Origin: Escherichia coli
GTDB lineage: Bacteria > Pseudomonadota > Gammaproteobacteria > Enterobacterales > Enterobacteriaceae
Length of the DNA: 64,000 nt
Strand: one strand, 5' to 3'
Assembly (NCBI RefSeq): GCF_003334335.1
Contig: NZ_QOWQ01000012.1
The translations under genes were made by a program, and so were the position numbers. Positions 1,081 to 50,806 of the stretch are shown piece by piece. Each line of letters begins with the position of its first letter. The first letter of the stretch is position 1. A model generated the notes under the pieces. It was not told the DNA's origin and searched no databases. It saw only the letters and a list, made by a program, of their open reading frames with translations.

Positions 1081-3526
<2,446 letters not shown>

Positions 3527-3567
3527 TGACCTCTGTACTTATAACAACAACGTAAGGTTATTGCGCT

Positions 3568-3966
3568 ATGCAAACACAAATCAAAGTTCGTGGATATCAT
3601 CTCGACGTTTACCAGCACGTCAACAACGCCCGCTACCTTGAATTTCTCGAAGAAGCCCGCTGGGATGGGTTGGAAAATAGCGACAGTTTTCAGTGGATGA
3701 CGGCCCATAACATCGCCTTCGTCGTGGTCAATATCAATATTAACTATCGTCGCCCAGCGGTATTAAGTGACCTGTTAACTATTACCAGTCAGTTGCAGCA
3801 ATTAAACGGTAAAAGCGGCATCTTAAGCCAGGTCATTACACTGGAGCCGGAAGGGCAGGTGGTAGCGGATGCGCTTATTACGTTTGTTTGTATTGATCTT
3901 AAAACGCAGAAAGCATTAGCTCTGGAAGGGGAATTGCGCGAAAAGCTGGAGCAGATGGTTAAGTAA
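3568..3966 (+). CDS. fadM: Long-chain acyl-CoA thioesterase III (hot-dog fold)
   Basis: 132 aa; MQTQIKVRGYHLDVYQHVNNARYLEFLEEARWDG is a 4HBT-type thioesterase N-terminus; length matches FadM/YbaW. Confidence 0.85.
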   Translation: MQTQIKVRGYHLDVYQHVNNARYLEFLEEARWDGLENSDSFQWMTAHNIAFVVVNININYRRPAVLSDLLTITSQLQQLNGKSGILSQVITLEPEGQVVADALITFVCIDLKTQKALALEGELREKLEQMVK

Positions 3967-18417: not shown

Positions 18418-18532
18418 CGTTTGCCTTCGTGGTATCTGCAACTTTCCAGGGAACACCCTATTTTAACGTGGGAATAGTAGAGGGGAAGTAACAGATCTAC
18501 CACAATTTTGCATAACAGTTGCGAAAAACCGA

Positions 18533-19084
18533 TTACAATTTTTTAATTATTCTGGCTGGATTACCGCCCACGACAACGTTGTCCGGGACATCTTTTGTGA
18601 CAACTGCACCTGAGGCTACCACGACGTTATCACCAATGGTCACACCAGGGTTAATGACCGCGCGTCCGCCAATCCAGACGTTATTACCGATGGTGACGGG
18701 TTTCCCCAGTTCAGCACCGCTATTACGTGCTACAGGGTCGATGGGATGTGTTGCCGTGTAGATATGAACGCCTGGTGCCAACATACAGTTATCACCGATG
18801 CGAATAGGGCAGACATCAAGCATCACGCAATCGAAGTTGGCGAAAAAATTATTACCGAGAAAAATGTTATAGCCATAGTCACAGCGAAACGTTGGCTCAA
18901 TATAAGCCTCTGTCACCTGACCGAATAGATCAGCGAGAATTTGCTGGCGTAATGTGTGCTCTTCCGCCAGGGAATGATTGTATCGGTGAATAAGCTGACG
19001 AGCGCGCAGGCGATCGCGAGATAACGTCTCATCTGCCGAGCGATACAACTCACCAGCAATCATCTTTTCTTTTTCTGTGCTCAT
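18533..19084 (-). CDS. maa: Maltose O-acetyltransferase (hexapeptide-repeat acyltransferase)
   Basis: 183 aa; [21 protein letters not shown]... with left-handed beta-helix hexapeptide repeats ([45 protein letters not shown]). Confidence 0.9.
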
Positions 19085-19255
19085 TACTGACCTCCGGTTG
19101 CTGAAAATGCGGCAACACAGTAAGACGAAAAGTCAGTGAAGAGAACGTTCCCATTACATCTGTGTGATAAAGATCACATAGGGTATGTCTTCATGGCGAA
19201 AAAGTATAAAATTCTTAATAAACAGCCGGTTATAGCTCCGAAAGCGAATTATTTA

Positions 19256-19474
19256 TTAGCGAATAAATTTCCATACTGAGGAAGGGATCTTGTCGTACAG
19301 TTTATTCATGGTCAATTCGGCGAGGCGGTGATCTGCGGCTGAGTAAAATACCGCCAGTTCATTATCTGATAATTCGTATTTATTTTTCTCGATAACACGC
19401 TCCAGCGTGTCAATTGTCTGGCAACGACGTAAACGCATTAAATAATCGGTTTTCGTTAAAGGTTTTTCGGACAT
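19256..19474 (-). CDS. hha: Hemolysin expression-modulating protein Hha (H-NS co-regulator)
   Basis: Track ORF 154 aa is over-extended; ATG at 19474 gives 72 aa [72 protein letters not shown]. Confidence 0.9.
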
Positions 19475-19499
19475 ACTTCTACCTATGGTTGTAATAATT

Positions 19500-19874
19500 C
19501 TAACAAGATAAACTCGCAGGATTCTCTTTCGTCGCATTGACAAAACAACGGAATAGTCGATTACCTGACTTCCGCCATTTCTGAAGATCCTGCATATTAA
19601 TACCATAACTACTGAACAACATAAAGGTGTCATCCAGATATTCGTCGATCTGCTCAATGAGCTTATTGTCTTCATTATACTTAATTTTGTAATTAAGTGC
19701 GAAGGTCGCAATATGCTCAATCAGTTCATTCAACTGGAGGTTGATCGCCGAGGTTGGGTCGTTTACCCAGCCATGATTGCTTTCTTCAAGGTTTGCAAGG
19801 CAGTCATGATACAGGGTTTCACAGAGAAACTTAAGCTGTGCGATATCATGTCTTTTGGGTGAGTATTCATCCAT
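19500..19874 (-). CDS. tomB: Hha toxicity modulator TomB (YbaJ)
   Basis: 124 aa; [40 protein letters not shown]...; immediately upstream of and co-oriented with hha. Confidence 0.85.
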
Positions 19875-20375
19875 AACGCGTCCCCTTCTTAGCGGTTGAA
19901 CTAACGGACACCTTTCGGGATGGAAAAAACTTACTGACCTGGACTTGCCCTCTCGTTTGTTAGCTTAACTATAAGCCACTCTTTGCAGGTTTTCATCGCA
20001 TTATTACGAAAAATTACAATTAGGAAGGAAGCGGGACAGGACTCATTTTTTCATACTAGCACTAACCCGCAGCAGGTAAAAGCAGTTTGCTCGAACTATT
20101 CATAACATTTCAGGATTATCGCCAGATGAAATTGGTGACACTAATACCAGGATTGCTCTGAATATGACGTAATAACCGAGGAATGAATAAAGAATTACCG
20201 CAAATAATTAAGAATAGCCTCTAAATGATTATGGATTATTAAATCTATTAGCGCTACTTAATATAAATTAACTAACAATCAGTATTTTTTATGAATTTTA
20301 TCCGTGGTTAATACTGGTTTTCGTATGAGATCCTGAGTTGGTGGTTCAATTACTCCTTAATGTTCGTAGGTTATG

Positions 20376-20402
20376 CATAAAAAAGGCCGCTTACGCGGCC
20401 TT
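20376..20402 (-). terminator. Rho-independent terminator after acrB
   Basis: Hairpin aaggccgc-ttac-gcggcctt preceded on the + strand by an A-run (T-run on the minus strand) just downstream of the acrB stop. Confidence 0.75.
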
Positions 20403-20419
20403 AGTGATTACACGTTGTA

Positions 20420-23572
<3,153 letters not shown>

Positions 23573-48040: not shown

Positions 48041-50545
48041 TTATTCCTTCGGTTTAAACCGCAGCAACCGGTTGGCGTTACTCACTACGGTAATCGACGA
48101 GAGCGCCATTGCCGCTCCGGCAACTACCGGGTTAAGCAGTGTTCCAGTGAACGGCCACAAAATACCGGCGGCGACCGGAATACCGATACTGTTGTAGATA
48201 AACGCACCGAGCAGGTTCTGCTTCATGTTGTGCAGCGTTGCGCGGGAAATAGCGAGCGCATCCGCAACGCCCATCAGGCTATGGCGCATCAGGGTAATCG
48301 CCGCGGTTTCAATGGCAACATCACTGCCGCCACCCATCGCAATGCCGACATCCGCCTGAGCCAGCGCTGGCGCGTCGTTAATGCCGTCGCCCACCATTGC
48401 CACCTGACGTCCTTCACTTTGCAGATGTTTGATCGCTTCGGCTTTACCGTCCGGCAGCACCCCGGCGATCACCTCATCAATCCCTGCTTCTTTGGCGATC
48501 GCATTGGCGGTGGTTGGGTTATCCCCGGTCAACATCACCAGACGATATCCCGCTTTATGCAGGCGTTGCAGCGCCGCCACGCTATCACTACGCAACGGAT
48601 CGCGTACTGCCAGCAGGGCTACCGCTTTCCCGTCAACCGCCAGCAGCACAGGCGTTGCCCCTTGCGATGCCTGAGCAGTAATCTCCGCTTCGATAGCTTT
48701 GGTACCAACCTGTTGCTCATTTAACAGCGCCTGATTGCCCAGCAATAACGCATGACCTTCAGCTTCACCGCTCACGCCCAGCCCGCGCAATGTGCGGAAA
48801 CCGTTGACCTGCGGTAGCTGCATATCACCTGCTTTATCGAGGATCGCTCGTGCCAGCGGATGGCTGGAACCTTGCTCCAGTGCCGCCGCCAGACGCAATG
48901 CCTGCGCTTCATCAACATCAGCAAATGTTTTCACTGCGACAACCTGCGGCTTCCCTTCAGTCAGCGTCCCGGTTTTATCGAACACTACAGTGTCGAGTGT
49001 ACTGGCGCGTTGCAGCGCGTCAGCGTCCCGCACCAGCACGCCAAACTCAGCCGCCCGCCCGACGCCGGAAATAATCGACATCGGCGTCGCCAGCCCCAGC
49101 GCACACGGACAGGCAATAATCAGTACCGTGGTGGCAATCACCAGGGTATAGACAATCTGCGGTGCCGGACCAAAGAAATACCAGATTGCCGCACTGACAA
49201 GCGCAATAACCACCACTACCGGCACAAATACGGCTGAGATTTTATCCGCCAGCTGACCGATTTCTGGCTTGCTGCTCTGGGCCTGGCGCACCATGCGAAT
49301 GATTCGTGACAGCGTAGTATGGCTGCCAACCGCACTGGCACGAAACAGCACACTGCCGTCCTGTACCACTGTCCCGGCATGGACGCTATCGCCTTCGCCT
49401 TTTTGCTGCGGGATTGGTTCGCCCGTCAGCATCGCTTCATCCAGCCATGCTTCGCCCTGGGTAATCTCGCCATCTACCGGCACGCGATCGCCGGTCGTCA
49501 GGCGCAGCAACATACCTGGCTGCACTTCTGCCAGAGGCACGCTTTTTTCACCTTCGTCAGTAACCAGGCGTGCCGTCGGCGGGGTTAAATCGAGTAACTT
49601 TTCCAGCGCCTTAGAAGAACGCTGGCGTGCGCGCGCTTCCAGCATATGGCCGAGATTGATCAGACCGATAATCATCGCGCTGGCTTCGTAATAAAGATGT
49701 CGCGCTTCCATCGGGAACCACTGCGGCCACAGGTTGACGCTCATCGAATAGAGCCACGCCACGCCAGTACCCAGCGCCACCAGCGTATCCATCGTCGCCG
49801 CACCGTTCAGCAGGCTTTTCCATGCACTGCGGTAAAAATGGCCGCCGGCGAAAACCATCACTGCCAGGGTTATCAGGCCGATAACCAACCACAGGCTGCG
49901 GTTGTCAGCGGTGACCATCATGTTATCGCCGATCATCCCCCAGACCATCACCGGGATACCCACCGCCAGTGCGACAATTGCCTGCCAGCGGAAGCGCTTC
50001 ATCGTAGCGACGGCGGTTTCTTGCTGGCGCTCGCGGCGTTTAGCGTCATCTTCAATCGCTTCCGCGCCGTAGCCCGCTTTTTCCACCGCCTGCACTAAAT
50101 CTTGTGGGGAGGCACTGCCCATCACCAGCGCAGTACGCTCCGCCAGGTTTACCCGTGCCTGAGTGACGCCCGGTACGCTTTGCAGCGCATTTTGTACGCG
50201 GGTGACACAGCTGGCGCAGCTCATGCCGCTCAGCAGCAACTGCTGGCTGTCATCGTCATCGGCGGTCGCTGCCGGAAGCGCCTCAGAAACCGCTGTCAGT
50301 GCTTCCGACGGGATTGATGACTCCGCCAGCGGTTTAGCCTTTGGGTGGCTTACAGATGCGTCATAACCCGCTTGTTTGATGGTTTCGATCAGCTGTTCTG
50401 CACTGGCAGTCCCGGTAACGTGCGCTTCAGTGATAGACACATCCGCCTGCTCAACATCCGGACGCTGTTCAAGACTTTCTTTCACGCGTTTAACGCAGTG
50501 ACCGCAGGACAGGCCGTCCAGGGTCAGGTCGATAGTTTGTGACAT
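48041..50545 (-). CDS. copA: Cu(I)-translocating P1B-type ATPase CopA
   Basis: 834 aa; two N-terminal CxxC metal-binding domains (GLSCGHC, GMSCASC), CPC transmembrane motif, DKTGT phosphorylation site. Confidence 0.95.
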
Positions 50546-50615: not shown

Positions 50616-50806
50616 GAAATTAATAAACCAGGCGGGTAAAAGTCCGTAAAGATTAAAAAATCGGCTCGATTTGCATCAGGATTAGACATTTATCTCTTTG
50701 TTTTCCTGTAGTTAAGTTGCGGGTGCTAAGTTAAATCAGGATGCCTGAAAATCGGCACCGGGGTGAGGAATTACCTCCCGCATCTATAAAAAGGAGTTAA
50801 CAAAAG

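Follow-up and report, generated by a model that had tools for sequence, protein, structure and literature searches.

Why are the genes tomB and hha of Escherichia coli preceded by 545 bp of AT-rich DNA in which nothing is annotated, and does a short reading frame within that DNA encode a peptide? In the 64,000-nucleotide stretch of E. coli DNA analyzed here (hereafter the window), which is colinear with K-12 MG1655 (K-12 coordinate = window + 460834), hha, tomB, and acrB all lie on the minus strand. The second gene of the operon, hha (19256-19474, 72 aa), was identified from its ORF and translation and has identical coordinates in the K-12 annotation; the first gene, tomB (19500-19874, 124 aa), and the upstream neighbor acrB (20420-23569), which belongs to its own operon, are given by the ORF call and the K-12 annotation. 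The acrB–tomB spacer (19875-20419) ranks as the longest of the 46 inter-feature gaps in a 50-kb colinear stretch of K-12, where the runners-up measure 315 and 237 bp. Its GC content falls to 0.21-0.40 across 19950-20350, compared with about 0.5-0.6 in the flanking genes, and the window differs from K-12 at 1 position across the whole spacer. The ORF list contains no frame of at least 60 aa in this interval, and the spacer carries no annotation in K-12 and, among the rows sampled from 5,424 RefSeq E. coli genomes, only IS insertions. On all of these points (gene positions, an AT-rich gap of 545 bp, no ORF of 60 aa or more), the coordinates, gap ranking, GC profile, and ORF list agree with a preliminary description of this DNA. 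The same description drew attention to a plus-strand frame of 13 codons, with an ATG at 20183 that follows GAGGA and a stop at 20222-20224, and this frame does exist as translated (MNKELPQIIKNSL). The reading that we favor, with a probability of roughly 85%, is that the spacer combines several non-coding regulatory elements and that the 13-codon ORF is a chance reading frame.

By annotation and by analogy with Salmonella, tomB and hha represent a known toxin/antitoxin-like operon, in which the genes are adjacent (same strand, 25 bp apart), co-transcribed, and preceded by an autoregulated promoter. In K-12, the product of tomB is named ‘Hha toxicity modulator TomB’, and a single tomB/hha transcript has been reported that extends from -89 to +662 (Clarke et al., 2014). 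The module has been characterized in Salmonella, where TomB binds its own proximal promoter fragment. The K-12 product name and the Salmonella work are thus in agreement with the earlier view of a two-gene toxin/antitoxin-like module. The genes, their order, and their coordinates are identical to those of the K-12 tomB-hha (ybaJ-hha) locus with its promoter tomBp, and the window shows no substantive difference from it.

For comparison, a set of 76 genomes was assembled, 5 from Escherichia and 71 from other genera of the Enterobacteriaceae; in 80 loci of this family, tomB orthologues share 89-100% identity. The spacer is long in all 76 genomes (435-559 bp, median 509), and its length is therefore a conserved property and not a peculiarity of E. 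coli. Conservation of the sequence itself is confined to a few blocks, outside which identity ranges from 0 to 65% and indels are present.

One of these blocks is the tomB promoter. A promoter scan found a sole promoter-like site on the minus strand of the spacer, ATGAAA-17-TATAGT at 19996-19968, that is, 93-122 nt upstream of the tomB ATG. Its -35 hexamer ATGAAA (19991-19996) and -10 hexamer TATAGT (19968-19973) are an exact match to the tomB-hha promoter of Shimada et al. (2014), and hence the same as those published for K-12 tomBp. In the 76 genomes, the blocks TTGTAATTTTTCGT(A/G)AT, TGAAA, and TTATAGT, which together cover 20019-19968, are each at least 95% conserved. The hexamer ATGAAA is a weak -35, typical of activator-assisted promoters.

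A position of -361 corresponds to the established length of the rne leader. Since the rne fragment of Clarke et al. (2014) starts at this very position, the boundaries in that study can be taken as probable transcription starts. From the tomB boundary and the forward primer used there, CTAACAAACGAGAGGGCAAG, which maps with its start at window 19963, transcription of tomB would begin near 19961-19963. The 5′ UTR would then measure about 89 nt (19875-19963, minus strand) and contains the Shine-Dalgarno (SD) sequence AAGGGGA at 19887-19881, which is invariant in an alignment of 20 genera; about 450 of the 545 bp of the spacer would lie upstream of the start. The in vivo sigma-S RNAP ChIP-seq peak, converted from older K-12 coordinates, falls at window 19864-20059 and covers the proximal promoter only. 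Three promoters were predicted in the 1 kb that precedes Salmonella tomB, and GFP was obtained from the proximal fragment alone. Taken together, the documented promoter, the -89 boundary, the proximal ChIP-seq peak, and the Salmonella reporters argue that the leader measures about 89 nt rather than 545. The proposal that the spacer might be a long 5′ UTR or leader of tomB-hha is not supported by this evidence, and the inactivity of the distal Salmonella promoter p622 also speaks against it.

A related possibility is that a second, distal promoter is used conditionally, for example under the control of sigma-S or upon relief from H-NS, and produces a leader of about 350 nt. A moderately conserved block does lie at 20230-20300 on the minus strand (…AAAATCATAAA…CTTATTG…TTTATTTT…TAnnAT), which most genera carry about 360-410 nt upstream of tomB; between genera its identity is 55-67%, above that of its surroundings, and it ends in a -10-like hexamer that reads TAnnAT in most other genera and AATAAT in E. 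coli (20240-20235). In addition, an in vitro SELEX peak of the RpoS holoenzyme lies at about window 20398 (converted from older K-12 coordinates), and the conservation of the block together with this nearby peak leaves some room for a conditional promoter at the 20240-20235 hexamer. However, the block coincides with the Salmonella promoter p622, predicted by BPROM with its distal TATAGT 387 nt upstream, which gave no GFP. The hexamer is degraded in Escherichia to AATAAT or AATAAC, with no more than 3-4 of 6 matches at the -35, the in vivo sigma-S peak is restricted to the proximal promoter, and the would-be leader of 350 nt has no fold signal. The ymoBA operon of Yersinia offers a precedent for two transcription start sites (TSSs), but both lie at most 188 nt from the start codon. 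A functional distal promoter of this kind is therefore quite unlikely.

The leader of about 89 nt contains a near-invariant motif, UCCAUCCCGA (19915-19924, minus strand), conserved to at least 90% over the 20 aligned genera. The leader itself appears unstructured: its fold z-score is -0.12 relative to shuffles, its stability is not above that of controls, and 0 of the 7 pairs in the 20-genus consensus fold covary. The only helix in this consensus joins CCAUCCC to the SD/AUG region. In most species UCCAUCCCGA is indeed complementary to the SD region of tomB, with a pairing that is neither thermodynamically robust nor accompanied by covariation. An anti-SD role for CCAUCCC was considered and is unsupported; partition-function calculations gave a probability of pairing with the SD of 0.00 for E. 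coli and of 0.00-0.98 for the others, pairing of the SD does not exceed that of shuffled controls, and no pair covaries. A leader uORF was also considered, given that a TTG frame of 9-10 codons overlies the motif in 15 loci, among them Citrobacter, Salmonella, and E. albertii; it was rejected, as a start codon is lacking at the motif in this E. coli window. It is conceivable, if rather unlikely, that UCCAUCCCGA, the distal block at 20300-20230 with its -10-like hexamer, or both are undescribed control elements of tomB-hha. On that supposition, the leader motif could bind a post-transcriptional regulator or act as a DNA operator for TomB/Hha-H-NS, and the distal block could be a conditionally active promoter with a leader of about 350 nt.

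Immediately upstream of the promoter lies the non-coding element with the highest conservation in the spacer. It is a CpxR-type tandem repeat, GTAAT-N5-GTAAT (GTAATTTTTCGTAAT, 20003-20017, minus strand), which spans roughly -54 to -40 relative to the TSS with its center near -47, and it is nearly invariant in the 76 genomes, of which 71 are from outside Escherichia. The 5′ half-site is identical in all 76 rows; in place of the 3′ half-site GTAAT, about a dozen Citrobacter/Kosakonia loci have GTGAT, and one locus has GCCAT. The quoted CpxR consensus, TTTAC-N4-8-TTTAC, corresponds to GTAAA-N-GTAAA on the opposite strand. Against this consensus the box matches at 8 of 10 positions rather than 10 of 10, each GTAAT half-site scoring 4/5. 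A relaxed CpxR pattern occurs twice in the 64-kb window, versus an expectation of 0.30. The tandem spacing of the pentamers and their location just upstream of the -35 are those of a CpxR-regulated promoter. Both tomB and hha belong to the CpxR regulon in RegulonDB, and tomB is included in the CpxR iModulon. EMSA showed that CpxR~P binds the orthologous ymoB-ymoA promoter of Yersinia, whose activity it raises; the motif involved lies 56 bp ahead of TSS2, and the activator site in the window occupies an equivalent position. On the basis of the phylogenetic footprint, the regulon lists, and binding in Yersinia, the invariant block was assigned as a putative CpxR site, through which envelope stress would raise tomB-hha transcription. 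The tomB promoter resembles CpxR-activated promoters such as those of cpxP, degP, and yccA, which carry a tandem GTAAA-N5-GTAAA upstream of the -35, in its tandem direct repeat with 10-bp periodicity, in the center of that repeat near -47, in its weak -35, and in the membership of tomB and hha in the CpxR regulon and of tomB in the iModulon. It differs from them in its half-sites (GTAAT, 4/5) and in that no ChIP-exo peak was reported for tomB: the gene is absent from the ‘direct targets’ that Choudhary (2020) listed for CpxR, and that data set thus does not confirm direct binding in E. coli.

Elsewhere in the window, a perfect CpxR-type box, GTAAAAGTCCGTAAA, was observed at 50636-50650 on the plus strand, about 91-105 nt ahead of the copA start codon. 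By colinearity with K-12, copA occupies 48041-50545 on the minus strand; it is absent from the quoted RegulonDB list of CpxR targets.

Farther from tomB, the DNA upstream of the promoter (20030-20300) is AT-rich, with a GC content of 0.21-0.40, and is poorly conserved, with indels. Shimada et al. (2014) marked an H-NS genomic-SELEX site in this spacer, and H-NS bound to the AT-rich tract probably damps tomB-hha transcription. The tract is similar to other AT-rich intergenic regions bound by H-NS in its GC content, which is as low as 0.21, in its H-NS SELEX site, and in its accumulation of IS insertions. In contrast to such regions, it is flanked here by core genes rather than by horizontally acquired ones, and the length of the spacer is kept throughout the family. 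With the promoter, the CpxR-type box, and the H-NS SELEX site in place, the broader suggestion of the preliminary description, that the region upstream of tomB is regulatory, holds well.

Insertions within the spacer were observed in two natural isolates. In E. coli TUM13773, an IS1 element (locus L087, 1501-2428) stands in place of window 19932-20311; the tomB promoter is lost together with the CpxR-like box and only 57 nt remain upstream of tomB, and this strain presumably expresses tomB-hha differently. In E. coli O166:H15 JNE070796, an IS679 element of the IS66 family (locus L089, ~1100-3860) lies in the distal spacer, roughly between 20219 and 20326. A published mini-transposon insertion is also known in the spacer, and these three cases suggest that this AT-rich DNA tolerates or attracts insertions.

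Between the AT-rich tract and acrB there is a segment of about 75 bp found only in Escherichia (20300-20375), which is gapped in at least 93% of the non-Escherichia loci. It occurs in one place per genome and is polymorphic, being identical in just 2928 of 5424 genomes. An origin as a repeat element was rejected on account of its single-copy status in the 5424 genomes. This segment, situated just downstream of the acrB terminator, varies more than the rest of the spacer, and 785 genomes carry it at 90-95% identity. The intrinsic terminator of acrB itself, AAGGCCGC-GTAA-GCGGCCTT followed by a T-run (20383-20402, minus strand), was detected by the terminator scan; it is a perfect inverted repeat of 8 bp and is conserved in all genera. 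A PdhR site, with a published match of 8/14, is classed as inside acrB.

A long unannotated gap with some conserved blocks could also be thought to host an unannotated small RNA or a cis-regulatory RNA element. Here, however, an Rfam scan of 18500-21000 at E ≤ 10 returned sub-threshold hits on the acrB terminator hairpin only, and no terminator-like site other than that of acrB was detected in the spacer. The fold z-scores of the rest of the spacer, on either strand, range from -0.40 to +1.27, none better than shuffles, and the leader consensus has no covarying pair. No riboswitch, attenuator, or sRNA was found in the spacer by the Rfam, fold, and covariation tests, which makes an RNA element of this kind very improbable.

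There remains the 13-codon frame at 20183-20224 on the plus strand, for which the alternative to a chance ORF would be a genuine E. coli-specific micropeptide. An intact ATG…TAA frame with an adjoining GAGGA is present, and 4315 of 5423 E. coli genomes have the 81-nt segment that carries it in identical form. This identity is uninformative because the flanks are equally invariant in 7 aligned strains. The geometry of the putative ribosome-binding site is poor: GAGGA is separated from the ATG by 0 nt (CCGAGGAATG), compared with a functional spacing of about 5-9 nt. As GAGGA abuts the start codon, no SD core stands at a functional distance, and none was found 5-16 nt before the ATG. Neither is the frame unusual for DNA of this composition. 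In 1000 dinucleotide-preserving shuffles, 4.9 ± 1.8 ATG-ORFs of at least 13 codons were expected, versus 3 in the real spacer, and an ORF with a properly spaced SD was present in 31% of shuffles and in none of the frames of the real spacer.

Comparative data are equally unfavorable to a micropeptide. Four sibling lineages of Escherichia (loci L002-L005), E. albertii and E. whittamii among them, have another sequence in place of the ATG, and where a shifted ATG is present in these siblings, it opens a frame of only 3 codons. In the 71 genomes of other genera, the corresponding stretch is 34-55% identical to that of E. coli, with indels and no alignable frame. Conservation of the ORF across the Enterobacteriaceae, which had been proposed as a check, is thus not observed: the start codon is lost in the nearest species, and indels intervene beyond them. 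On both strands of the distal part of the 76 spacers, no small-ORF family common to several genera was found. Other apparent ‘families’ of shared ORFs were rejected, since all of them lie over conserved promoter or leader DNA and have inconsistent starts and lengths.

The promoter scan found no plus-strand promoter-like site in the spacer, and reading the distal alignment by eye revealed no plus-strand promoter with acceptable -35/-10 spacing. Neither the curated K-12 annotation nor the PGAP annotations contain the ORF, and it has no entry in the supplement of one start-site profiling study (Stringer, 2021). In the natural isolates mentioned above, IS679 truncates the ORF at its 3′ end and IS1 deletes it. 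Like the validated small proteins of E. coli (≤50 aa, found by start-site profiling), it is a short intergenic ATG frame, and the likeness ends there; in contrast to them, it shows no proper SD spacing, conservation, same-strand promoter, or record in annotation or profiling. The preliminary description had itself called the ORF speculative, and a coding role is at odds with the SD geometry, the lack of any excess over chance, and the lack of an annotation or profiling record. We regard a real micropeptide as hardly credible and judge the frame to be a chance ORF. An imperfect direct repeat (74%, 20-nt spacing, AATAAAGAATTACCGCAAA / AATTAAGAATAGCCTCTAA) was noted at 20186-20224 on the plus strand, where it takes up most of the ORF, and TAAGAAT-like words recur at the ORF position in other genera.

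The composite, non-coding reading of the spacer can be followed from acrB toward tomB. The anatomy and its conservation, the identity of the promoter, the -89 boundary, membership in the CpxR regulon, and H-NS SELEX binding come from the present data or from the cited work; the roles given to the elements are putative. The acrB transcript would end at the Rho-independent terminator, which is followed by fast-evolving filler confined to Escherichia. About 270 bp of AT-rich, poorly conserved DNA would then serve as a binding platform for H-NS, possibly allowing feedback by Hha/H-NS. Next would come the deeply conserved CpxR-type tandem repeat, centered near -47, and the sigma-70 promoter ATGAAA-17-TATAGT with its weak -35. 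Transcription would start near 19961-19963 and yield a leader of about 89 nt that has a strong SD and appears to be unstructured.

The contents of the locus are ordinary and already known, as the promoter, CpxR control, H-NS binding, and the acrB terminator are all documented. The analysis removes a false small-protein candidate and explains a conspicuous gap of 545 bp by documented elements. The gain is modest: the phylogenetic footprint places the likely CpxR site of tomB-hha within a 15-bp stretch that hardly varies among the Enterobacteriaceae, and it also flags the conserved leader motif UCCAUCCCGA. As a minor observation, the search of E. coli genomes found two plasmid records that carry a copy of the acrB–tomB spacer.
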